Translations under genes and position numbers: made by a program | The notes under the pieces: generated by a model | Told to the model about the DNA's origin: nothing | Seen by the model: the letters and a program-made list of their open reading frames with translations, nothing else | Databases searched by the model: none | In this document: positions 2,007 through 30,500 of the stretch, one piece after another | How positions within the stretch are numbered: the stretch's first letter is position 1 | How the letters are laid out: every line of letters starts with the position of its first letter | Source: Wolbachia endosymbiont of Dirofilaria (Dirofilaria) immitis | Lineage (GTDB): Bacteria > Pseudomonadota > Alphaproteobacteria > Rickettsiales > Anaplasmataceae | DNA: 32,000 nucleotides | Assembly (NCBI RefSeq): GCF_013365455.1 | Contig: NZ_CP046578.1 | Coordinates: 60,001 to 92,000 of the forward strand | Direction: 5' to 3'

Positions 2007-3812
2007 ATGTATAGGTCGGCATACGCGATTATAGAACATCAGTATGATGTAGTGGTAGTAGGTGCAGGTGGAGCAGGGCTTAGAGCAGCACTTGGAATGT
2101 CTGCTACTAATTTTTCAGTTGCTTGTATCTCTAAGATCTTTCCTACGCGCAGTCATACAGTTGCAGCGCAGGGTGGAATCAGTGCAGCTTTAGGAAATAT
2201 TGCTGAGGATGATTGGCGCTGGCATGCGTATGATACAATAAAAGGGTCAGATTGGCTTGGTGATCAAGATGCAATAGAGTATATGTGTAAAAACGCTGCT
2301 GAGGCTGTTATTGAACTTGAAAATTTTGGTGTGCCTTTTTCGCGCACAGAAAAAGGCACAATATACCAGCGTTCTTTTGGCGGAATGACAACTCATTTTG
2401 GTAAGGGAAAATCAGCTCAGCGTACTTGTGCAGCGGCAGACAAAACTGGGCATGCAATTCTTCACACTCTATATCAGCAGTGTCTTAAATTCAATACTGA
2501 ATTTTTTGTTGAATACTTTGTGATTGACCTGATCATGGACAACAAAACTGGGGCTTGCTGTGGAGTTTTTGCCTGGTCGCTATGCGATGGTACGCTGCAT
2601 AAATTTCGCGCACATTTGGTGGTATTAGCAACAGGTGGATGTGGGCGTGTTTACTTTTCTACAACGAGTGCACACACCTGTACAGGTGATGGTAATGGTA
2701 TGGTAGTAAGAGCTGGATTGCCACTTGAAGACATGGAGTTTGTGCAATTTCACCCAACGGGAATATATGGTTCGGGATGCTTGATGACAGAAGGGTGTCG
2801 AGGAGAAGGTGGATACCTTATTAATTCTCAAGGTGAGAGATTTATGGAACGCTATGCACCTAAGGCAAAGGACTTAGCTTCTCGCGATGTAGTGAGTCGT
2901 GCGATAACAGTTGAAATTAGGGAAGGGAGAGGAGTTGGGCCAAAGAAAGACTGTGTATACTTAACTATAGCACATCTTGATCCAGAAGTAATAAAATTAA
3001 GGCTTCCAGGAATTAGCGAAACCGCAAAGACTTTTGCAGGAGTTGATGTTACTAAAGATCCAATACCGGTTATTCCAACTGTTCACTACAATATGGGTGG
3101 CATTCCAACTAATTATCATGGGGAGGTGGTTACGTTACAAAAAGGTAACGAGCAAGTAGTAGAAGGATTATTTGCAATTGGAGAAGCTGCATGTATTTCT
3201 ATACACGGTGCAAATCGACTTGGTTCTAATTCACTTCTTGATCTCGTAGTTTTTGGTAGAGCTGCAGCACTAAGAGCGAAGGAAAAATTAAAGCTCAATA
3301 TGCCACATAGAAAGTTGCAATCAGATTGTACGGATTGGATAGTAGATAGGTTTCACAAGATGCGATTTGCTTCTGGAGGGTTTAGAGTAGCGAAAATACG
3401 CAATGAAATGCAGAACACTATGCAAAAATGTGCATCGGTATTTCGTGTTGCTGAGGTTTTAAAAGAAGGTAAGAAAGCTATAAAAGAAGTAGCAAAAATG
3501 ATGCCTGATATTATGGTTAAAGATCGCAGTATGATATGGAATAGCGATTTAGTTGAAGCGCTAGAACTTGCTAACATGATTCCACAGGCAGTTATTATCA
3601 TGGAGTGCGCAGCTAATCGCGAGGAAAGCAGAGGTGCTCATGCTCGTGAAGATTTTCCTAAGCGTGATGATGAAAACTGGATGAAGCACACTATGGCGTG
3701 GCTTGAAGAGAAAAAAGATGAAATCAATGTAAAAATCGATTACAAAAAAGTTGCTGGAAAAACTCTGAGTGATGAGATTGACTTTATAGCGCCAGAAAAG
3801 AGGATTTATTAA
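2007..3812 (+). CDS. sdhA: Succinate dehydrogenase flavoprotein subunit
   Basis: 601-aa ORF. N-terminal FAD fold '[14 protein letters not shown]'; covalent-FAD histidine context '[10 protein letters not shown]'; 'HPTG', 'CRGEGG', '[11 protein letters not shown]'; C-terminal '..KRIY'. Confidence 0.97.
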
Positions 3813-6378
3813 TTTGCTTGTTAAATTCTAATAATTCCTGGGTGAGTTGGGATATTGATATACTGTCTATTTTAGAATTAGGGAGGTTTTCAGTATGTTT
3901 TAATTGGTTTTGCAGTTCTTTTTGTTTTTCTAAATCATTGAGCTGATTTTCTATCTTTTTGGAAGAAGGGCTATTGTATTGTATATTACTTTGGGGTGTA
4001 GTTTGCTTTTCTTTGATGAGTTCCTCTTTAATTTTTTTAAATCCTTTGTAAATATTTTCTAAATTTAGGCAGATAAGATAGCAGACTCCTATGGCTGTTA
4101 TAGTAAATGATGCAGTAATAATTGTAATACTTCCCTGAGCAATACTGAATACTACTGCACAGGTTAGAGCAGCAAACACAAGCGTTGTCACTACTTTGTA
4201 AGTAATGTTGTTGACATGTTTCACAATATCACGTGCTTTAAATTTCTTACCAAAATTAAGTTTTAGTTTAGTTCTCATGTCATTTGGAATAAGTAATTTA
4301 CCCATTGACTTCTCTATTTCTTTTATAGTTTTATAGTACTCTTTATTCCATGATGGTTTAGATAGTATTAATTGCTTTGGGTCAGCGCCATTTTGTAGTA
4401 ATTTTACACAGAACTTAATTGTGTTATTGTGGTTTTTAGGATTGTGGTGGTGATTATACCTATCTTTTACTATTTTAGAAGTTAACGCTACTTGTAGCGG
4501 TGTTTGTTTTTTGCCGTTGCTAGTGTTTATAGCTTTATTTAGCTTATCCTCAGATATATTCCCGTATTTTACTACTAGATCCAAGCATATAACCTTTTGT
4601 TCTCCTTTGAGTAAAGCAATATAGTGCAGAGCATTCTTTTTGTTACTGTCTTTGATAGTGATATCAGCACCGTTTTCTAATAGTAGCTTTAAGGCTTTGT
4701 ATCTTTTAGTATTCTCAAAACTTGCCAGTGAAGGTTTTTTGCTCTTTTTTTGCATGTATTGGAGTAGTTGGTGGAGTGGTGTTTGTCCTTTCTCATTAAT
4801 AGCATTAATAGCATAACTAAATTCGTCTTTGCTTAAAATCAACTTCAAGTATGCAATTCTTTGTTTTCCCTTGAATGGAACAATATAATGCAAAGCGTTA
4901 TTCTCTTTTTTATCCTGAATGGTAATATCAGCACCATTTTCCATCAATAGCTTGAAGACTTTATACTTGTTAGTATTTTTGAATTCTTTTTTTACTATAT
5001 TTTTTATTTTGCTTATTAATGAAGATTTTTTGCTCCTTTCCTGTATGTGCTGGAGTAGTTGATGGAGAGGTGTTTGTCCTTCTTGATTCTTGTTATTATT
5101 TATGGCATTAATAAATTGTTCTTTTTGACCTACTTTTAGTAATATATTGAGGAATTCAAGCTTTTGTTCTTTTTTCAATTTTGAAACTATCAGGTGTAGA
5201 GCATTATTGCCATTTACATCTTTAAGGCTGACATTTAACCCTTTTTGTAACAGTTTTTTAAAAAGTTTTTTATCGTAATTATTAATTGCTGAATGTAGTA
5301 GATAATTATTATTAATATCTAAAATATTTATAATTCGTGTTATAATATCTTTAATTTTTTTTTCTATATCAGATTTCTGCTCTAGTTTGGATTGCTTTAC
5401 TAACTCTGTTAATTTTTCTGAGAAATTACAATAGTATGCCTTTTGCTCTTCTCTTAATCCTTGTAATTCTTCTATAAATAATTCTAAATTACTATAGCTG
5501 GTTCTATATTTTAACAATTTTACGAAAAATTTAAGCGTGTTATTGTTATCCTGTAGTGTATGAGACTTATGTTTTTCTTTTGTTATTTTATTAATTGTTG
5601 CTTCCTGAATAGAAGTCTTTTCCTGATCTTGACTATTAATAAGCTGTTCTGGATTTTTTTTGCTAACAGTTTTAATTAGGGTACTGAAAAACTTAAGTTT
5701 CTGTTTCCTTTTTAGCGATACAATAGGGTATAAAATATTCTTTTCTTTCTTATCTTTTATGTCGCTAATATCTATGTAGCTTTTTAGGTGTTTTCTAAAT
5801 TTTCTATCATTTTGATCTTTAATCGCCTTCAGCAATTGAATACTATTATTTACTGCTCTGTTATTTATTTCTACTTTGTAATCATCTTCAATGTTGCTGC
5901 CGTAGCCACTTTCTGGTTTGCTACCTTTGCTGTTCTTGTAGTTATTTTTCTTGTGGGCAGTACTATTAAAGCAATGTTTACTGTTACAAGTAACTTCTAA
6001 AATTACTTGTCTTATTTCCTCTTTTTTTGTATAGTTTAATTCTTTTGATATCTTTTTATTTAATACTGGGATAAAGCACTGGGTATAGTGTCTATAGTAT
6101 TTTTCTTGTTTTCTTAGTGTTTCTTTTAGTATAGCTAATACTTTAAGGCTAGCACCTTTCTTGATTAGCCTTTTGTACTTCTTGATAATTCTATCTCGGC
6201 TTCTTGGTTTTTTGTGTTTATGCTCTTCTTTTTTTACCTTTTTCTCTATAACATTATACAGTTGTTCACTTTTTCTCTCTTGTTCTTGCCTTTCATTTTT
6301 ATCTATGCACCCTTCTAATTTATTCACGTTAGTAGTTAGTGCATTTATATCTATATTCATATAAATCCTCGATATCAA
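3784..6378 (-). CDS. Ankyrin-repeat protein with a C-terminal double hydrophobic segment and a coiled-coil tail (orphan, effector-like)
   Basis: 864-aa ORF. The track start is TTG at 6378; ATG at 6360 ('MNIDINAL') is more plausible. ANK signatures: '[10 protein letters not shown]', '[10 protein letters not shown]' (x2), '[24 protein letters not shown]', '[24 protein letters not shown]', '[10 protein letters not shown]' (nt ~4380-5310). A 43-aa hydrophobic block '[43 protein letters not shown]' (nt 4066-4194) is split by the polar turn AQGS. It is followed by a 93-aa Lys/Glu/Gln-rich tail. The N-terminal ~400 aa are Lys-rich and low-complexity. The 3' end overlaps the sdhA 3' end by 29 nt. Confidence 0.85.
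4420..5370 (-). repeat. Intragenic tandem repeat of ~280-290 bp (about 95-aa ANK-pair units, 3-4 diverged copies)
   Basis: Unit starts (minus strand) are at 5079 ([13 protein letters not shown]), 4788 ([13 protein letters not shown]) and 4509 (KQTPLQ), giving periods of 291 and 279 nt. Matching DNA blocks include 'ggagtagttgatggagaggtgtttgtcc' (5051-5079) versus 'ggagtagttggtggagtggtgtttgtcc' (4761-4788), and 'atatcagcaccattttc' versus 'atatcagcaccgttttc'. Confidence 0.75.
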
Positions 6379-11102: not shown

Positions 11103-11217
11103 TAGATTTTAGTGCGTAACACTAAAATCTATATTTCTTTTTTTCTGGATTCTAGTGTTAGACTACTTGAATAGAATCTATGAGTCCTATTATCTAGATG
11201 CTTGACACTGGAACCTG
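11103..11217. repeat. Cluster of three palindromic-element units in the gltX/miaB divergent intergenic region
   Basis: H1 at 11103-11131 is 'tagattttagtg-cgtaa-cactaaaatcta', a perfect 12-bp stem followed by T-rich 'tatttcttttttt'. H2 at 11148-11178 is 'gattcta..gtgttagactacttgaa..tagaatc' with a 7-bp outer stem. H3 at 11191-11217 is 'tatctagatgcttgacactggaacctg'. H2 and H3 are inverted relative to each other and match the two halves of the ileS copy. Confidence 0.7.
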
Positions 11218-13224: not shown

Positions 13225-16200
13225 GTGAGCATGAAGCATTATCCTAGTACAATTAGCAACCCTGATTTTTCTTTGTTAGAAAATGAAGTAATAAAATTTG
13301 GGCAGGAAAATAAAATTTTCGAGCGTTCAGTTGAAGAACGTTCTAAAGATAATTGTTTCGTCTTTTATGATGGACCTCCATTTGCAAATGGACTTCCACA
13401 TTATGGGCATTTACTTACTGGTTTTATAAAAGATGCGTTTGCAAGGTATCAAACCATGTTACAAAAGAGGGTTGAACGTAGATTTGGTTGGGATTGCCAT
13501 GGACTGCCAGCTGAGATGGGTGCAGAAAAGGAACTTGGAATATCTGGTAGGACTGAGATAGAAAAATTTGGTATTGAAAAATTTAATAACCATTGCCGTG
13601 CTTCTGTAATGAGATTTTCATTGGAATGGAAAAAATATATAAATAGGCAAGCAAGGTGGGTAGATTTTCATGATAGCTATAAAACAATGGATAGATCATT
13701 TATGGAGTCGGTCATGTGGGCATTTAAGCAGCTTTATGATAGAGGTCTGGTATATGAATCGGTACGTGTTGTGCCGTACAGCTGGGCGTGCGAGACTCCA
13801 TTATCTAATTTTGAAACAAGGCTTGATAACTCTTATAGAGAAAGGACTAGCAAGGCTGTCACTGTTGCATTTGAGCTTTTGGAAAATCCACAGCAATTTA
13901 AGCAAAAATGTAAATTGCTTGCTTGGACTACAACTCCTTGGACTTTGCCAAGTAATTTAGCTTTAGCAATAGGGAAAGATATTGAATATTGTGCGGTGTT
14001 AGTTCACTCCTTGATGTCATTTCAACATGTGACTCTAGAATCTGCTTTCGGATTTCAGTGTCAAGGTGCTAGGATAACAGAGGACAATAAAAGAAATCAG
14101 GTAAGTGATGAGGTATATATCTTTGCTAAAAGCTACCTAGAAAAATTTATCGATTATTGCGAAAAGGACAATGTTACATATGAAAACTGTAACATAAGGC
14201 TTAAAGCAAATGATCTTATAGGTCTTTCTTATAAGCCACTGTTTGATTACTTTAAAGATACAAAAAATGCGTTCCGCATTTTTGCTGCTGATTATGTTGT
14301 AGGAGAAAATGGTACTGGCGTTGTACATACTGCTCCTGGATTTGGTGAGGAAGATTTTTACCTTTGCCAAGGTCATAATATTCCAGCTGTTTGTCCGATT
14401 GATAACAGTGGTAAATTTACTCTTGAAGTTTCAGATCTAGCCGGAGTGCATGTTTTTGATGCTGACGATATAATAATAAAGAAATTGAGAGAGCAAGGAA
14501 ACTGGTTTAAAACTGAGAAATATGTTCATAATTATCCGCACTGCTGGAGAACTGATACTCCTTTAATCTACCGTACTATGCCTTCTTGGTATGTTGCTGT
14601 GACAAAGTTTAAGGGAAGGATGTTGGAGTTGAATAGAAGAGTCAATTGGATACCAGATTATATAAGAGATGGTCAGTTCGGAAAATGGCTTGAAGGAGCA
14701 CATGATTGGTCAGTTTCACGCAATCGGTTTTGGGGTACACCAATTCCTGTGTGGAAATCGGATGATGTAAGGTATCCAAGAATAGATGTATATGGTTCAA
14801 TAGCAGAACTAGAACGAGATTTTAATGTTAAAGTAAATGATTTACACAGACCATTTATTGATTCTTTGACAAGGCTAAATCCTGATGATCCAACAGAAAA
14901 GTCAGTTATGCGCCGTGTACCCGACGTGTTTGACTGTTGGTTTGAGTCTGGTTCAATGCCGTTTGCACAAGTTCACTATCCATTTGAAAATAAGAAATGG
15001 TTTAAGGGTAATTTTCCTGCAGATTTTATCACTGAATATATAGCGCAAACAAGAGGGTGGTTCTATACACTTTTTGTATTATCTACTGCTTTATTTGACA
15101 GTGAACCATTTAGAAATTGTATATGCCACGGTGTAGTTTTGGATATGAAAGGTCATAAGTTATCTAAGCATTTGAGTAATTATGTAGATCCAATGGAGGT
15201 TTTTGATAAGTATGGTTCTGATGCTCTGCGCTTTTTTATGCTTTCTAGCCCTATTGTTTGTGGTGGTGATTTGTTACTTGATAAAGATGGGAACTCGATA
15301 CGAGATGTTTTAAGAAATGTGATAAAACCTATTTGGAGTAGTTATCACTTCTTTACTATGTATGCAAATGCAGATGAAATCAAGGCTGCAGTTTGTAAAG
15401 ATTATCAAAGTACTATTGATTGTTATATGGTCTCTAAATGTTTTGAAGCTATAGAAAGCATCCAGACTTTTATGAACAACTATAATTCTCAAGGAGCTTG
15501 CAAAGTTCTAATAGATTTTTTTGAAGTGCTGAATAACTGGTATATCCGTCGCAATCGTGGGCGTTTTTGGAGAAATGGTTTAGATCAGAATAAAATTGAT
15601 GCTTATAATGTTTTATACACGGTTTTTTATTATATATTAAGAGCCGCAGCTCCTTTATTGCCGCTTATAACAGAAGCTATATGGCAGGGACTTAAGTATA
15701 GGGAAACATCTGTTCATTTAGCTGATTTTCCACAATTAGAGAGGTATGATAGTAAATTTATTGCCAAAATGGATTTGGTGAGAGAAATGTGTAATGCTGC
15801 ACTCTCTGTTAGAAACACTTTTAATATACGTATTAGGCAGCCACTTGGCAGTATGGTAATTTATCATCAGTTTTTTTGTAATTTTCTTGAGAATGATTAT
15901 CAGGAGATGATAAAGGATGAGGTAAATATAAAAAGCTTGGAATTAGTTAACAAGCTTGAAGATATTGCGTCACTGGAGTTAAAGCTAAATTTTTCACTGC
16001 TTGGAAAAAAGATTCCGAGCAAAATCAAGAGGCTAGTTCAATATGTTAAAGGGAGAAAATGGAGACAGATTGAAGGTGGGCGAATATTTTTAGGAGATGA
16101 GTTAGAAAGCTATGTTATAGAAGAAGGTGAGTATGAACTATTATTAAAGGCAAATAGGGAGCATTCTGCTGTATTTGATAACAATAAAGGGGTTGTTGTC

Positions 16201-16485
16201 CTAAACATTGAACTAAATGATGAATTGATTCTAGAAGGACTTGCGCGAGATATTGTAAGGTTCATTCAGGAAACTAGGAAACAAGCTAATTTTCATATAT
16301 CTGATAGAATCAGAGTAATAATCAAAACAGAGGATGAGAAAATTGAAAAAGCGGTAAATGTGTGGGGTAAGTATATAAAAGAGCAGACTCTTGCCTTATC
16401 TTTAGAGGTTGGTGCAGAAATCAGAGCTGGCTTCTATTTTAAGAAATACCAAGATTTGATCATTGGTATTAGTTTAAATTATTAA
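13225..16485 (+). CDS. ileS: Isoleucyl-tRNA synthetase (type 2), carrying an in-frame palindromic-element insertion
   Basis: 1086-aa ORF. The track start is GTG at 13225; ATG at 13231 is likely. HIGH 'PHYGHLL', editing peptide 'WTTTPWTLPSN', KMSKS-region 'HKLSKHLSNYVDP', 'DCWFESGSMP'. Confidence 0.95.
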   Translation: MSMKHYPSTISNPDFSLLENEVIKFGQENKIFERSVEERSKDNCFVFYDGPPFANGLPHYGHLLTGFIKDAFARYQTMLQKRVERRFGWDCHGLPAEMGAEKELGISGRTEIEKFGIEKFNNHCRASVMRFSLEWKKYINRQARWVDFHDSYKTMDRSFMESVMWAFKQLYDRGLVYESVRVVPYSWACETPLSNFETRLDNSYRERTSKAVTVAFELLENPQQFKQKCKLLAWTTTPWTLPSNLALAIGKDIEYCAVLVHSLMSFQHVTLESAFGFQCQGARITEDNKRNQVSDEVYIFAKSYLEKFIDYCEKDNVTYENCNIRLKANDLIGLSYKPLFDYFKDTKNAFRIFAADYVVGENGTGVVHTAPGFGEEDFYLCQGHNIPAVCPIDNSGKFTLEVSDLAGVHVFDADDIIIKKLREQGNWFKTEKYVHNYPHCWRTDTPLIYRTMPSWYVAVTKFKGRMLELNRRVNWIPDYIRDGQFGKWLEGAHDWSVSRNRFWGTPIPVWKSDDVRYPRIDVYGSIAELERDFNVKVNDLHRPFIDSLTRLNPDDPTEKSVMRRVPDVFDCWFESGSMPFAQVHYPFENKKWFKGNFPADFITEYIAQTRGWFYTLFVLSTALFDSEPFRNCICHGVVLDMKGHKLSKHLSNYVDPMEVFDKYGSDALRFFMLSSPIVCGGDLLLDKDGNSIRDVLRNVIKPIWSSYHFFTMYANADEIKAAVCKDYQSTIDCYMVSKCFEAIESIQTFMNNYNSQGACKVLIDFFEVLNNWYIRRNRGRFWRNGLDQNKIDAYNVLYTVFYYILRAAAPLLPLITEAIWQGLKYRETSVHLADFPQLERYDSKFIAKMDLVREMCNAALSVRNTFNIRIRQPLGSMVIYHQFFCNFLENDYQEMIKDEVNIKSLELVNKLEDIASLELKLNFSLLGKKIPSKIKRLVQYVKGRKWRQIEGGRIFLGDELESYVIEEGEYELLLKANREHSAVFDNNKGVVVLNIELNDELILEGLARDIVRFIQETRKQANFHISDRIRVIIKTEDEKIEKAVNVWGKYIKEQTLALSLEVGAEIRAGFYFKKYQDLIIGISLNY
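14015..14080. repeat. ~66-nt imperfect palindromic element translated in frame within ileS
   Basis: 'tgtcatttcaacatgtgactctagaatc tgctttcg gatttcagtgtcaaggtgctaggataacag'. The reverse complement of the right half ('tatcctagcaccttgacactgaaatcc') matches intergenic 11191-11215 ('tatctagatgcttgacactggaacc'). Translated as 'MSFQHVTLESAFGFQCQGARIT'. Confidence 0.7.
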
Positions 16486-16544: not shown

Positions 16545-19289
16545 ATGGATATAGCTGTTAAAGTTGGTAACTTAAGTAACGATGATGATGGTAGTTTGGG
16601 TAAAAAAGAGTCTGTTCTTACTTCGAAAGAGCAAGATGATTTGAGGAAAAGGGATGAGGTTGTTGATTTTAGTATCCCACTAAGTATATTTTATTATAAA
16701 GGTTATAACTCTGACTTTTTTACTTCCTGGTATAATGTATCAAGTAAAATCTTCAAAGAGATAAGCAGTGTTTGCCCGGAAAAACGGGTGTTAAATTTAG
16801 CTTTATCGGTTTTGATGCTTCCTTATGTTGCTTTTGTTGTATTAGGGTTAGTCATATGTAGTAGATTTAAAGCAGACGATAAAATACAGATCGGTTTTGA
16901 AGAGAATAAAGTGAAAAAAGGTGAAGTGAGTGAAAGTGTACCGAAAAGATTGGCATATGGTGTTCTTACTGCGATAGTGATTCTTGTTAACGTGGCTATG
17001 CTTGTAGTCTTAATTATCCCTGCAACACTTGCTTTAGCTACTTTTTGTCTTTTAAATAGGAAATTATCTAACTCTTTAATTGCTGCTCTTAGAATAAGTA
17101 TTGGGCTGTGTTATAATAAGCACCAAGATATTAGAGTATCTTTTCATGAAACAAGTTATGGGGCGGAAGTTCTTAATCCAAACATTATGTGGAATATGAA
17201 GATTAAGTTCCCGCCACAGTTTGAACAGTTGCTTAAAGATTTATGCGAAGATGGAAATGGTAAACTATCTATTATGCGAGATGTAGGGCATAGTACTATA
17301 CTAAAGCTATCAGCTAATGTTCGCTTAAAAAATGGTCTTGTACATTTGTATAGTGAAATTAGTAATGTGATTGCAAAGTCAATTCGAGAATTTGCAAGGG
17401 GTATTGAAAAACTGGTAAAACTAAGAAAGAATGATATCGTATACGATAGCCTAAAAAAGCTGTTGAATGAGTTTAGACTGAAGGTGATAGATAGTGTAGA
17501 TTCTAAGTTAGCAAGTCACTTAATACAGGACGCTTATAGAGTTGCCTTTATACAGGCAATTAAGGTTGCACAAAGGGAAAGAGAAAAAAGGGGGGGATTA
17601 GATATAGAAGAAAGACTGAAAGAGGTATTGGTAGAGCAAGAATTGAAAAGCCAGGGTAAGGAGTTACCGACTGAGAAAGAGATGATAATAAGGGATTTAA
17701 AAATATCAACCAACTTAAAAAGTGGTACACTTCCTTTGTTTAGAGCAAAATGGAAACAACGTGTGGTTGGAGGAGTAATTGGTGTTTACAGTGAAATATA
17801 TCCTCAGGAGACAAAAAAGGCTACCTCTGAGGCTAGAAATTTAATTGTAGAGTTAAAAGAAAAAGGAGGACGGAAATATCAGAACATAAAAGAGAAATTA
17901 GAGGTGATATATTTAAAGATACATAAAGCTTTGAAAAAAGATAGCAGTTCAGTGAGTAATAATCTAAGGAGGAAACTTGAGGATATTTTTGAATTTGAGC
18001 CTGCTAATCAATATGTTTATCGAGAGTTGGTAAAATCGAAAATAAGAAAGGCTGAAGTTATGTTAAGTCAATCGGATCTAGCAGTTGATGTAAAGCAGGG
18101 TCTGCTTGGTGAATTCTGTGATTTAAATATAAATGTGTGTTCTTATCATGAAGTAAACCTCTTGCTAGAGAAAATGTATTTAGAAATAATGAAATGTAAA
18201 ACTCAAAGTTTGTTTCAAGAGCAAGGAAAAAGTATAAGAGACATAGAAGATAATACTGGTGTATTCATGCTGTTTGATGGGGAGGATGAAGAATGCCTAG
18301 TAAATAGGATTGTTTCTTATCGAGAAGAAGTAGGAAAGTATTTAATGCAACCTGTGGAATTGAAGAAAGTAATAGAAAAGCAGAATAAGAATTTGGATAG
18401 TGAGAAAAATAGTAAAGAGAAGGAATCTTTAAGTATAGAGTTGATAGAGTTATGTTTGAAAAATAACCAGGAAATTTTGGAAACATTGGAACGATTAGGA
18501 TCAGAAAAAGAAGGGTTATTGATAAATGAGAAAACGGAAAATGATTACAGAGAAGAACTTACTTCTCGTGAAAAGATAAGATTTGCGGTAATAGAAGATG
18601 ATTTATTGAAGTTGTGTAAGCAAGAAACTTTTAATGAAAAAGAAATCAAGAAGTTATTAGAGAGAGCAGAACTTGAATGCTGTTTAGCAGAAAAATGTAT
18701 CGAATATCCTATGATTAAAACGAAAGATAATATCAAACATTTTTGTCAGGCTTTATTATCTCCTTTGATAGGTATTTTGATGGAAAATATAATAAGTAAT
18801 GTGCCAAAAAATATATCGAAAGATAATGAAAATAATTTATTAGGTCAGGGTTGGGGTTGGGTATATAGAAAAGTAATAAAGCCTGCGCAGGTTGCTCTGA
18901 ATTATAATAAGCTTGGATTATCAGCTATTGGAGATAAAAATAGTATAGAAGGAAAAGCATTAGATTCAGCTCATAATACTTATAAGGAGGTAGAGATGTT
19001 GCTTCAATATTTTGAATCAAGTTATGAGAAAGTAGGAACTTTAGTAGGTAATGTATTTTCTGATGATGGAGAAACATTTAAAAAGAATATATGGCCTCAA
19101 GTAAAAGAGCATTTGTGTAGTATGTGGAATAGATTTTTTAAGGATATTGAGTTCACACTGGTTAATGAAAGTGAAAATATCCCTCAAGAAACAGAAGAGA
19201 CAGTGAAAACTAAATTAAGTGAGCTTTATAATATAGGAATACGGCGACAAGCTCTACCTGGTAGCATAATACACTATCTTGCTAAGTAG
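16545..19289 (+). CDS. Large orphan membrane-anchored protein (N-terminal hydrophobic segments plus long helical, charged region)
   Basis: 914-aa ORF, 59 nt after ileS with no terminator in between. 'gagg' lies 7 nt before the ATG. Hydrophobic '[24 protein letters not shown]' and a 35-aa block '[35 protein letters not shown]' (nt ~16791-17057). The remaining ~740 aa are Lys/Glu-rich and helix-like, with no catalytic motif I recognise. The 3' end overlaps the alaS 3' end by 16 nt. Confidence 0.8.
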
Positions 19290-22000
19290 TTATAAATGGC
19301 TGTGATAATATCACTATCATTACAGCCTGTTTGAACAAGTTCATCGTTTCCACTGCAACTTTTTCCAGTTACAGTAGATACTAGCTCTTTTGCACTGATT
19401 TTGTCAGCTAGGTCTTTACTTACTTTTACAATCAAAGCTGTTTTACTGGACTTCTTGCTTGGTGAGAAATTAGTAGCTCTATTTGGCATCATCCCAGTGT
19501 GTGAAGTTGGAATGATAAAGGATTGCGAAAGTGTTTTATTCTTTCCAGTTACTGTAAAAGCTATTACTGTTTTTGGCTTTTGTTGCTGCAGAACAAATTC
19601 TCTTATTATATTTACTGGAATGTCAGTAAAAGCATGACTTATAAAATATATCCTATTTATTTCGATGCTTTTTATATTTTCTATTCTTAAGAGCTTTTTA
19701 TAAAGTTTTTTTATTTTAGCTTCGAATTCTTTGCGTTCTTGATTTAAAATATCTAATCGATTTATTATCTCGCTTATTGGCGCTTTTACGGATTTTGCAA
19801 CTTTTTTTAAGTTAATTTCATTATTACGGACATAATTAATTGCTTCTTGACCAGTTAGGGCTTCGATTCTTCTTACTCCAGATGAAATAGAACATTCTGT
19901 TACTATTTTAAATAAACCTATTTCTCCAGTGCATTCTACATGTGTCCCACTACATAATTCTTTTGAGTCTCCAATGTTTACAACCCTGACCTGATCACCA
20001 TATTTTTTGCCAAACGATGCTATAGCTCCTTCACTCATTGCCTGGTTTATGCTCTGAATTTTTGTGGACGTGGAAAGATTTGCTCTTATTAAAAAGTTTA
20101 CCATATCTTCTATTAAAAACAGCTGATTTTGAGTAACTTGAGTGTTATGGCTGAAGTCAAATCTTAATCTATCTGATGCAACTAAAGAACCTTTTTGAGT
20201 AATGTGATCACCTAAGGTTTTTTTCAGTACAAAGTGTAAAAGATGTGTAGCTGAGTGATTCATTCTTATGCTCTTTCTTTTTTCCTTATCAATGGTTGCT
20301 GTGACTATGTCACCTTTATGAATTGAACCAGATTTAACTATGCATCTGTGTAGATATAAGTCTTTAATTTTATTGGTATTTTCTACTGTAACTATACCTT
20401 GAATAGTATGATTTGTAGTACATGATTGGTTATTTTTTTTGTGAATCTCAGCGCTTATCAATGGGGTAGCAAAGAGAAACTCTCCAACATCCCCAGATTG
20501 TCCACCTGATTCACCATAAAAAGGCGTTTTATCAAGTATGATAGTTATCTTATCTCCCTTTTGTGCAGAGTTAATAACTTTATTTTTAGGGGAAATTATG
20601 GCTAGTACTTTTGCATCCTTTGCTTCACTAGACTCATAACCAATGAATTCTGTTTTGCCAAATTTATCAATCAAATCAAACCATACTTGCTTAACGGATT
20701 TTTCGCCAGGTCCTACTACTACCCATTTAGCACGTGCTCTTTCCTTCTGTTCTTCCATTGCGTTATCAAAACCCTTTTGGTCAAAATTTATTCTTCTCTC
20801 TTTTAAAATATCAAGCGTGATATCTAAGGGGAATCCATAAGTATCATATAGCTTAAATGCTGATTTTCCTGATAGAGTATCACCTGGTTTTAAATCTGCA
20901 ATAAATTTTTCTAAGAGATTGATACCTTTCACCAAAGTATCTTTAAAGTTCTCTTCCTCTGATTTTAATGTTATTTCTATTAAGCTTTTAGCTCTAATTA
21001 ACTCAGGGTAAATATCTCCCATATAAGCTGAGCTTGAGCTATCTATTAATACTGGAAAAATATGATGAAGAAGGGGTTTATTATATCCAAGCTGGTGAAT
21101 ATAACATGCAGCTCTCCTGATCAATCTACGTAATACATAACTTCTGCCTTCGTTTCCAGGAAGCATTCCTTCTGCAATTAGAAATGCAGCTGAACGAAGA
21201 TGATCTGCGATAATCTTATGAGCTACTTTATTTTCTATATTTGCACAGTATCCTTGTGATTTATTTATTATGGTAGAAAATAGATCAATATCATAGTTAT
21301 CGTGAACGTTTTGCATCACAGCAGCTATTCTTTCAAGACCCATCCCAGTGTCAATGCATTTCTTTTGTAATTTTTGTAAATTGCCTTCTTCATCTTTATT
21401 GTATTCTATGAATACCAAATTCCAAATTTCAACAGTTCTGTCATTATCTTGTAAGTTGGGCTTTGCATGATCGAAAAGAATTTCAGAACATGGACCACAT
21501 GGACCAGTGTTGCCCATGCTCCAAAAGTTGTCTTCTGTTGCAATTCTTATGATTTTATCATCTGAAAAACCACTTACCTTGCGCCAAATTTTGTATGATT
21601 CATTATCAGTATGATAAATGGTTATAGATAATCTGCTTTTGTCAAGAGATAATTCTTCGGTAATAAATTTCCATGCAAGTTCTATTGCTGTTTCTTTAAA
21701 GTAATCACCAAAGCTAAAATTCCCAAGCATTTCAAAGAATGTATGGTGCCTAGTCGTATAACCAACGTTTTCTAGATCATTATGTTTACCGCCGGCCCTT
21801 AAACACTTTTGACTTGAAACAGCACGTTCAGCTTCAATTTTTTGTAAACCAGTAAAGCAGTTTTTGAACTGCACCATGCCAGCATTTGTAAACATAAGTG
21901 TTGTGTCGTGTTCTGGAATTAAAGGAGAAGAAGGAATATGCTTGTGATTGTTATTTACGAAAAAATTTATGAATCTTTCCCTAATTTCGTTTAGCTTCAT
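19274..22000 (-). CDS. alaS: Alanyl-tRNA synthetase, with an apparent in-frame insertion in the C-terminal domain
   Basis: 908-aa ORF. '[10 protein letters not shown]', '[18 protein letters not shown]', '[10 protein letters not shown]', editing-site 'HSATHLLH' and 'CSGTHV'. Confidence 0.95.
19487..19517. repeat. Palindromic-element unit (core hairpin) translated in frame within alaS
   Basis: 'catcatcccagtgtgtgaagttggaatgata'. The arms tcatcccag/ttggaatga pair 9 bp with one mismatch and one G-T. 17 of 26 positions are identical to the ileS unit 'tcatttcaacatgtgactctagaatc'. The flank 'cgaaag' (19526-19531) matches the spacer in the reverse complement of the ileS copy. Encodes '[11 protein letters not shown]' on the minus strand. 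Confidence 0.6.
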
Positions 22001-30354: not shown

Positions 30355-30470
30355 ATCCTTCTTAAAAGTTCTTGAATTTCAAGCACTATATTTGTTGTAT
30401 TTTTTCCTTATCAGGGGGTAGTGCTACCATGTAAGTAACTGCATTATTAGCATCTAGAAAAAAAAGAAAT

Positions 30471-30500
30471 ACAGATTCTAGTGTCGCGTACTGAAATGAT
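30471..30500. repeat. Degenerate single unit of the palindromic-element family
   Basis: 'cagattctagtgtcgcgtactgaaatgatg' has the same layout as H1 (gattttagtg-cgtaa-cactaaaatc): gattctagtg-tcgcg-tactgaaatg. An upstream 'agcatctaga' (30449-30458) is the reverse complement of 'tctagatgct' in H3. Confidence 0.55.

Follow-up and report, generated by a model that had tools for sequence, protein, structure and literature searches.

The window analysed here is a 32,000-nt stretch of the genome of the Wolbachia endosymbiont of Dirofilaria immitis (contig NZ_CP046578.1, positions 60,001 to 92,000), a strain which we take to belong to supergroup C. The feature under study is a run of 33 additional codons within ileS, the gene for isoleucyl-tRNA synthetase (IleRS), which an earlier inspection of the letters alone (the sequence-only reading) had put down to a selfish palindromic repeat translated in frame. 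The locus comprises the following features.

13225..16485, + strand: ileS, an intact 1086-aa open reading frame (ORF) encoding a type-2 (eukaryote-like) isoleucyl-tRNA synthetase
13924..13956, + strand: Thr-rich editing motif WTTTPWTLPSN (W234-N244) of the CP1 editing domain
13987..14004, + strand: native beta-strand before the insert, EYCAVLV (aa 255-260 in the AlphaFold2 (AF2) model), kept in empty and filled alleles
14005..14103, + strand: in-frame insert of 99 nt, 33 codons H261-V293 (HSLMSFQHVTLESAFGFQCQGARITEDNKRNQV), a gap in most Wolbachia IleS
14015..14042, - strand: left hairpin unit, decayed (TGTC tag + ATTTCAACA / TGTGA / CTCTAGAAT + C), coding SFQHVTLES and orthologous to TGTCATTCCAGCGCGTGACGCTGGAATC in other Wolbachia ileS
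14043..14049, no strand: 7-nt spacer TGCTTTC between the units
14050..14079, + strand: right hairpin unit, decayed (GGATTTCAGTGTCAAGGTGCTAGGATAACA), coding GFQCQGARIT, the top match of the unit model in the window
14080..14103, + strand: non-palindromic insert tail EDNKRNQV, homologous to ..NKGNLV in the Wolbachia of Onchocerca ochengi (wOo) and ..EDNEVSLV in wBp
14110..14127, + strand: native beta-strand after the insert, EVYIFA (aa 296-301 in the AF2 model)

The ileS insert and its host enzyme

The ileS product was 100% identical to the annotated isoleucine-tRNA ligase of the D. immitis Wolbachia. In a search of PDB sequences it matched human and yeast IleRS and Priestia megaterium IleRS2 at E values of about 1e-205 or lower, and its AF2 model aligned with P. 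megaterium IleRS2 and yeast IleRS in Foldseek at template modelling (TM) scores of 0.80-0.85, so that both sequence and fold are those of a type-2 IleRS with a CP1 editing domain. The WTTTPWTLPSN motif was invariant across 23 aligned Wolbachia IleS and was also present in distant IleRS representatives. The insert begins at H261, 17 residues past this motif, and its site, previously placed near the editing domain, lies within it. The proposed read-through was borne out by an intact ORF in which the peptide ..AVLVHSLMSFQHVTLESAFGFQCQGARITEDNKRNQVSDEVYIF.. is translated without interruption, with ..DIEYCAVLV before the insert and SDEVYIFAKSYLEKF after it; peptides spanning the insert include DIEYCAVLVHSLMSFQHVTLESAFGFQCQGAR and NQVSDEVYIFAK. 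Immediately downstream, S294-D295 align with the native turn 'NG' of other Wolbachia IleS. An intein, an intron and a frameshift were considered and dropped, the insert consisting of 33 in-frame codons without splice-like or intein motifs and being collinear with the annotated protein.

Two inverted units make up the core of the insert, with non-palindromic flanks of 10 nt on the left and 24 nt on the right. The left unit carries the tag TGTC (14015-14018), and that of the right unit has decayed to TGTT (the reverse complement of AACA, 14076-14079). The loops are of 5 nt, TGTGA (14028-14032) and TCAAG (14061-14065), with tails formed by C plus the spacer and by GG. Both stems begin AT; the left keeps 4 Watson-Crick pairs and 1 wobble of 9 pairs, and across the two stems 4 Watson-Crick pairs and 1-4 wobbles are left of 9 pairs each. 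The spacer is also of 7 nt in the group-A orthologue and is of 16-17 nt in supergroups D, E and F. The end of the tail, '[LQ]V', echoes the 'LV' that precedes the insert. As judged from the orthologues described below, the insert is a dimer of a 29-nt Wolbachia hairpin repeat.

Distribution of the insert and its repeat family

IleS sequences were aligned first for 23 Wolbachia and then for all 120 cluster representatives returned by the search. The gap expected in orthologues was found and was clean, the site being empty in 90 of the 120 Wolbachia representatives and filled, with inserts of 25-60 residues, in the other 30. Empty alleles read ..[LS]V-NG-E[VI].IF.., with a two-residue turn of NG, ND, SG or NS (mostly 'NG'), and comprise essentially all labelled group B strains together with some group A-like and F-like alleles. 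The inserts of group A, wBp, wLs, wFol, wCfeF, wCtub and an Onchocerca strain (P0002 cluster) have a common left junction and share H-S-x-x-S-F-Q-x-V-T-L-E-S, many of them going on to ..WIPVSSTGMT... At the DNA level the orthologous inserts follow the pattern TGTCATTCCAGCGCGTGACGCTGGAATC-spacer-GGATCCCAGTGTC..GCACTGGGATGACA, composed of the inverted units TGTC-ATTCCAGCG-CGTGA-CGCTGGAAT-C, spacer and GG-ATCCCAGTG-TCAAG-CACTGGGAT-GACA. Both units of these copies carry the TGTC tag and pair without mismatch in their stems, ATTCCAGCG/CGCTGGAAT and ATCCCAGTG/CACTGGGAT.

A distant set was formed by 116 representatives of type-2 IleRS families with the WTTTPW motif. Between the two strands, 53 of these have a loop of 2 aa and 28 one of 4 aa, the longest loop being of 23 aa, and the IleRS of Candidatus Deianiraea vastatrix (Rickettsiales) has no insert (..EYSLCKKNDEILIIAS..). 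Alignment by HMMER with the yeast IleRS 8wnd_A paired query residues 15-259 with chain residues 10-247 and query residues 295-1033 with chain residues 252-1014; four yeast residues (248-251) thereby stand for 35 query residues (260-294), with chain residues 247 and 252 flanking the site. The short loops of the distant and yeast enzymes indicate that the empty 'NG' allele is ancestral and that the ileS insert is, on these alignments, a derived insertion.

Two more repeat insertion sites were seen in the IleS of other Wolbachia, at alignment columns ~927-970 and 1032-1075 (..GEPLSVIPEFSPVIQVADTGIQ.., ..VIRVADTGIQ..IPASRAGMTE..), both empty in the window, wOo and wCtub. Wolbachia IleS thus has at least three repeat-tolerant sites. 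Among the distant IleRS, P0127, P0128, P0133, P0135, P0144 and P0145 (alphaproteobacterial or Rickettsiales-like) are of 1130-1370 residues; P0135 and members of the P0145 cluster are source-named 'isoleucyl-tRNA synthetase / GNAT acetyltransferase' or 'GNAT family N-acetyltransferase', and the extra sequence of these long enzymes starts shortly past the same editing-domain hairpin and helix.

Public genomes contain the canonical unit (consensus GGATCCCAGTGTCAAGCACTGGGATGACA) in at least 120 stretches, a figure that gives a distribution and not a census, and nearly all of these belong to Wolbachia or to Wolbachia-like 'Rickettsiales' metagenome-assembled genomes. Of 69 adjacent pairs in other genomes, 46 have the ileS arrangement, an inverted dimer with tags outward, which is the most frequent one. 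About a quarter of the unit sites (51/196) fall within long ORFs that extend for 60 residues or more to either side of the unit, the ten longest of which encode, according to Pfam, UvrD/AddA-type helicases, PurL, pyruvate phosphate dikinase (PPDK), ClpB, PD-(D/E)XK nuclease, LeuRS, PheRS-beta, transketolase and CcmF. The unit is open in four of six frames and all four translations (IPVSSTGMT, DSSVTHWDD, VIPVLDTGI and SSQCLTLGS) occur in host ORFs, with SFQRVTLES, WIPVSSTGMT and VIPVLDTGI as family peptides. A protein search with the 41-aa canonical insert peptide returned seven candidates and missed IleS itself, owing to a word-index limit. By these comparisons the ileS element belongs to a multi-copy Wolbachia family of hairpin repeats that also lies in frame in many other housekeeping genes.

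A hidden Markov model (HMM) of the unit was built solely from other Wolbachia genomes and was later enlarged with 65 distinct units from other genomes. The best nhmmer match in the window was 14050-14079 (E=0.0044, and E=2.4e-4 after enlargement), followed with the enlarged model by 19513-19489 (E=7.4e-4), 30474-30498 (E=2.9e-3) and 11213-11199 (E=0.013). The lowest score among the four counted matches was 11.2 bits, a value that none of 200 first-order Markov-simulated windows reached. These matches bear on the proposal of an ordinary lineage-specific loop expansion, in which the turn is naturally variable and its likeness to the repeat is due to chance. Loops of 6-23 residues do occur at the turn in some distant IleRS and the window palindrome is at chance level (see below), but the orthologous inserts reproduce almost perfectly a repeat that occurs at hundreds of places in Wolbachia genomes, the right unit matches an independent HMM at a score beyond any simulated window, and the peptide motifs are fixed translations of the repeat; such an expansion is barely credible. 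A further match at 21342-21358 (E=0.024-0.045) was rejected as a false positive, the DNA (ACCCATCCCAGTGTCAATGCA) coding the conserved motif IDTGMG of alanyl-tRNA synthetase (AlaRS), and an Rfam scan of the whole window returned no matching family.

Decay, tolerance and history of the insert

Folding of the ileS dimer from different alleles gave the following minimum free energies (MFE).

wCfeF: MFE -47.2 kcal/mol, z -9.6
P0016: MFE -42.9 kcal/mol, z -7.9
group A: MFE -38.6 kcal/mol, z -7.1
wFol: MFE -37.2 kcal/mol, z -6.7
wBp: MFE -32.1 kcal/mol, z -6.1
wOo: MFE -30.4 kcal/mol, z -4.0
this window: MFE -14.1 kcal/mol, z -0.9
wCtub: MFE -5.0 kcal/mol, z +0.8

Thirteen of the 18 substitutions that separate the window dimer from the group-A copy are GC-to-AT, and the GC content of the window dimer is 40%, compared with 54% for the group-A dimer and 32% for the whole window. 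No intact hairpin core was found anywhere in the 32-kb window. The ileS element of the window is a dead, fossil copy; AT-biased mutation has destroyed both hairpins, so that significant DNA/RNA structure is no longer formed.

An AlphaFold model based on 23 close Wolbachia sequences had a predicted local distance difference test (pLDDT) score of 35 and was discarded. The final AF2 model, generated from an 86-sequence alignment, had a mean pLDDT of 92.7 and a predicted TM score (pTM) of 0.87, and its sole segments with pLDDT below 50 were residues 273-285 and 287-291, between the strands at 255-260 and 296-301. Mean pLDDT was 61 for residues 261-270, 45 for 271-280 and 46 for 281-290. In this model the insert is a disordered surface loop at the turn of a beta-hairpin on the CP1 editing domain, a favourable outcome of the modelling check named in the sequence-only reading.

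These data are consistent with the insert being the fossil of a small non-autonomous palindromic repeat that was inserted in frame and is now a tolerated disordered loop, an interpretation to which we assign a probability of about 0.87. The ancestral repeat would have been a dimer of a ~29-nt hairpin (tag TGTC or CGTC, 9-bp stem starting AT, 5-nt loop and short tail) with short flanks, which would have entered ileS in an ancestor common to several Wolbachia supergroups and landed in the two-residue turn of the CP1 beta-hairpin. Having a base count divisible by three and a stop-free frame, it would have been translated as an extra disordered surface loop and tolerated; AT-biased decay would have come later, and 33 codons of loop would persist because removal needs a rare precise deletion. 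The polarity of the insertion, the family of the repeat, its decay, its reading frame and its place as a loop in the model are direct results of the analysis; from the sequence we infer translation of the insert in vivo and its neutrality, as well as the mechanism of mobilisation. The original suggestion of a selfish palindromic insertion tolerated in an essential aminoacyl-tRNA synthetase is thus upheld by the orthologue gap, the repeat family and the modelled loop.

The insert is probably an old, orthologous relic common to wOo and supergroups A, D, E, F and J, and not a recent or active insertion. Filled alleles have the same junction, frame and unit order, with a tail whose final [LS]V mirrors the [LS]V preceding the insert. 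The corresponding wOo DNA reads TTAGT|..TTAGT|, an imperfect direct repeat of 5-7 nt that is possibly a target-site duplication.

Several observations, given in this and the following two paragraphs, weigh against the fossil-repeat interpretation. The imperfect palindrome of about 66 nt noted previously is present at 14015-14079, although its strength is not above chance by folding: the 65 nt have an RNA z score of -0.91 at the MFE listed above, 33 of 200 shuffles fold equally well, and the 121-nt context gives z -0.43. An ungapped inverted-repeat search of the window did not report this palindrome. The left unit alone (14015-14042) was not significant in nhmmer (E=9.4) and was recognised by positional orthology with the left unit of other Wolbachia ileS alleles. 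With the palindrome at chance level and the left unit not significant by the DNA model, the repeat call rests on orthology with other strains, and for this strain the count of family members covers the 32-kb window.

On a neighbour-joining (NJ) tree built from the flanking protein, at least 11 changes are needed to explain the filled/empty character, and the midpoint root is 'filled'; this tree is confounded by recombination, so that a single ancient insertion is probable and not proven. In P0016 (locus L005, ~3760-3900) the dimer lies after 'NG', not before it, with the first unit in another frame (..SNGPLPQPPVIPVLDTGIQEENRWIPASRTGMTQNQSNE..), and seems to have been inserted independently, two codons away and possibly with a TAAYG direct repeat. 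Together with the patchy distribution, the different inserts that supergroup C and wFol carry at one site of alaS, and the same-site variation of Rickettsia palindromic elements (RPE) discussed for that genus (PMC3767692), these findings favour a hotspot, at which the inserts of different supergroups, including supergroup C, would be separate insertions into the same turn and not orthologous. This is nevertheless unlikely, as the filled A, C, D, E, F and J alleles share their left junction (V|H/R/N-S/P-L..), frame, unit order and homologous tail ending [LS]V, the window and wOo inserts are collinear, and precise loss between short direct repeats flanking a hairpin is a well-known process. This configuration is the classic substrate of such loss, and we infer one old insertion followed by repeated precise loss and by allele exchange through recombination. 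A more elaborate joint reading has only an outside chance of holding as a whole; in it the insert would be older than most supergroup splits, the TTAGT repeat ([LS]V...[LS]V) would be a target duplication, the at least 11 state changes among 120 alleles would include many precise excisions, and in lineages that, like this one, retained the insert once its hairpin had decayed, purifying selection would maintain the SFQxVTLES half as a new appendage with a function in the editing domain. If this were true, the beta-hairpin turn would be a natural test bed for the turning of selfish hairpin DNA into protein sequence.

By the Nei-Gojobori method the proportion of nonsynonymous differences (pN) was 0.15-0.54 in the insert and 0.06-0.11 in the rest of ileS, i.e. 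2.5-6 times higher in the insert, and the ratio of nonsynonymous to synonymous divergence (dN/dS) of the insert was mostly below 1 (0.16-0.71), with one pair at 2.2. Of six changes relative to the canonical sequence in the SFQxVTLES half, four break the hairpin and leave the amino acid unchanged, a hint of some peptide-level constraint, n being tiny. A loop of selfish origin in which this half has since been selected for a role, such as tRNA(Ile) contact, modulation of editing or partner binding, would account for the retention of H-S-x-x-S-F-Q-x-V-T-L-E-S in supergroups A, C, D, E and F, for the predominance of synonymous changes in these 13 window codons, where the hairpin is destroyed and the peptide kept, and for the insert dN/dS of 0.16 against wOo. 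The loop is, however, dispensable, being absent from three quarters of the Wolbachia IleS representatives (90/120), it has diverged to NPLVSLQHLKSKS in wCtub, its pN exceeds that of the rest of the gene with dN/dS above 2 in one pair, and the segment is disordered in the model. Conservation where the hairpin is intact can be explained by DNA-level homogenisation, and the synonymous excess is marginal (our own binomial estimate p ~0.06, n=6). Exaptation is accordingly judged distinctly improbable, and the insert is most likely a weakly constrained loop without a function of its own.

Read as a fossil repeat, the odd Cys/Gln/Phe-rich stretch of IleS is neither a sequencing error nor the signature of a pseudogene. 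Wolbachia gene alignments, phylogenies and scans for selection should be made with such segments masked, a precaution that Badawi et al. took with addA, addB and priA. Across the orthologues the hairpin goes from perfect (z -9.6) to absent (z +0.8) with the frame open throughout, a series that illustrates how selfish palindromic DNA turns into an unremarkable loop of protein under weak constraint when a reduced genome drifts towards AT. IleRS is a candidate drug target in filarial Wolbachia, and strains differ by a disordered editing-domain loop of 30-60 residues that is probably irrelevant to the active sites and relevant to construct design.

Other copies in the window and comparison with known systems

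Further members of the unit family were recognised elsewhere in the window, as follows.

11104..11130, no strand: single intergenic hairpin (AGATTTTAGTG CGTAA CACTAAAATCT), pairing with 30459-30497; nhmmer E=0.34, weak
11147..11215, no strand: intergenic dimer, tags inward, in the gltX/miaB gap; units ~11147-11175 (+) and 11185-11215 (-)
19274..22000, - strand: alaS, a second essential aminoacyl-tRNA synthetase gene with relics, both of them common to wOo
19436..19531, - strand: in-frame alaS relic, aa 824-855, 31-32 residues; nhmmer 19513-19489(-) E=7.4e-4
20399..20470, - strand: second, more decayed in-frame alaS relic, aa 511-534; recognised by protein alignment only, with no significant DNA match
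30474..30499, + strand: single intergenic unit (AGATTCTAGTGTCGCGTACTGAAATG), 82% complementary to 14017-14044; nhmmer E=0.0029

The sequence-only reading had described the ileS unit as recurring at 11145-11217 on account of shared strings, and these are confirmed (cagtgtcaa at 14057-14065 corresponds to ttgacactg at 11202-11210, and ctagaatc at 14035-14042 to gattctag at 11148-11155). The intergenic element is of the same family, although it is not the same 66-nt unit and consists of two units in the opposite, tags-inward arrangement; in nhmmer its right arm alone was significant, at 11213-11199(-) with E=0.013, the left arm giving E=6 at 11147-11160(+). The expectation of further copies held well beyond the window, as the distribution in public genomes indicates, and within it the hairpin at 11104-11130, the unit at 30474-30499 and the two alaS relics had been overlooked. 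The 11104-11130 copy has a perfect stem of 9-11 bp (ATTTTAGTG/CACTAAAAT) in which TTT/AAA replaces the CCC/GGG of the family consensus in both arms; such symmetrical changes, unlike those of the coding copies, suggest selection or hairpin-templated correction.

The alaS relic at 19436-19531 is absent from the AlaRS of supergroups A, B, D and F, Mesenet and Ehrlichia. At this C-terminal site wFol has a different, longer insert, implying that the site has been used more than once. Counterparts of the relic at 20399-20470 read ..VIPVLDTRIQKKND.. in the Wolbachia of Wuchereria bancrofti and ..VIQVADTRIQKEEN..SRAGMT.. in group A, with ..VIPVLDTRIQ.. in other strains. The largest direct repeats of the window (4582-5088; 132 nt + 69 nt, spacing 264-291) are internal to an 864-aa protein (3784-6378, - strand), which by its sequence looks ankyrin-repeat-like.

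The unit family was compared with CGTC-4, a class of repetitive extragenic palindromic (REP) sequence in which the terminal CGTC is often TGTC or CCTC and which has a 9-bp stem beginning AT, a 5-nt loop and a 3-nt tail (PMC3733652). CGTC-tagged REPs frequently occur as inverted dimers foldable as one long hairpin, have intragenic copies and have no dedicated transposase known (PMC3733652). Di Nocera, De Gregorio and Rocco (2013, BMC Genomics 14:522) equated R. conorii CGTC-4 with RPE-4, and their supplement gives 'VIPVLDTGI' of wRi WRi_011360 as CGTC-4, the R. conorii peptide 'WIPWSNHGMT' and a CGTC-1 dimer inside the IleRS of Erythrobacter litoralis (PMC3733652). The ileS unit family matches CGTC-4 in its tag, 5-nt loop, short tail and repetition as inverted dimers, and the listed peptides VIPVLDTGI and WIPxSxxGMT recur in Wolbachia ileS alleles and host ORFs, the decayed window version being GFQCQGARIT. 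It differs in that the stems of the decayed window copy fall short of the CGTC-4 stem and in that the ileS insert, a dimer with tags outward, has extra non-palindromic flanks.

Short hairpin units, inverted dimers and multiple copies are also properties of REPs, bacterial interspersed mosaic elements (BIME) and bacterial miniature inverted-repeat transposable elements (MITEs). Classical REPs differ from the ileS family in being mostly extragenic and GTAG-tagged, with a REP-associated tyrosine (RAYT) transposase; we know of no link between CGTC repeats and a transposase, and none was obvious in the window ORF lists, for which no systematic annotation was made. Unlike MITEs, the ileS element does not have established terminal inverted repeats or a clear target-site duplication.

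RPE were reportedly described by Ogata et al. (2000 in Science and 2002 in Genome Res), and Wolbachia palindromic elements (WPE) are said to have been described by Ogata, Suhre and Claverie (2005, Trends Microbiol 13:253). The genome paper of wBm contains nothing specific on WPE. Badawi et al. (2014) found in-frame 'WPE-like' palindromic regions in Wolbachia addA, addB and priA (PMC4224334). Like the WPE as described there, the ileS element is a palindromic repeat in frame in a housekeeping ORF, without stop codons or gene loss (PMC4224334), and, as with the 'WPE-like' addA/addB regions, UvrD/AddA-type helicase and PD-(D/E)XK nuclease genes host the present unit. The CGTC-4 of wMel and wRi is stated to be unrelated to the WPE of wBm (PMC3733652); for this reason the element is filed here as CGTC-4 or 'WPE-like' and not as WPE proper.

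In Rickettsia, the R. japonica ileS (RJP_0691) carries an RPE-7 of 144 nt, old RPE copies are hard to recognise, and same-site variation is debated as hotspot or common origin (PMC3767692). The ileS element resembles RPE as a selfish palindromic repeat in frame in essential genes, IleRS included, tolerated as a surface addition; RPE differ in belonging to another genus and to repeat families of 100-150 bp, and they are linked to the ileS unit through the literature. An ATGAC motif is common to RPE-4/6/7 and WPE, and the window units keep it in the left unit only (TGTCAT). Protein-coding palindromic repeats in Rickettsiales, among them some in aminoacyl-tRNA synthetase genes and specifically in IleRS genes, were described between 2000 and 2013, and the window copy is a new, decayed example of them.

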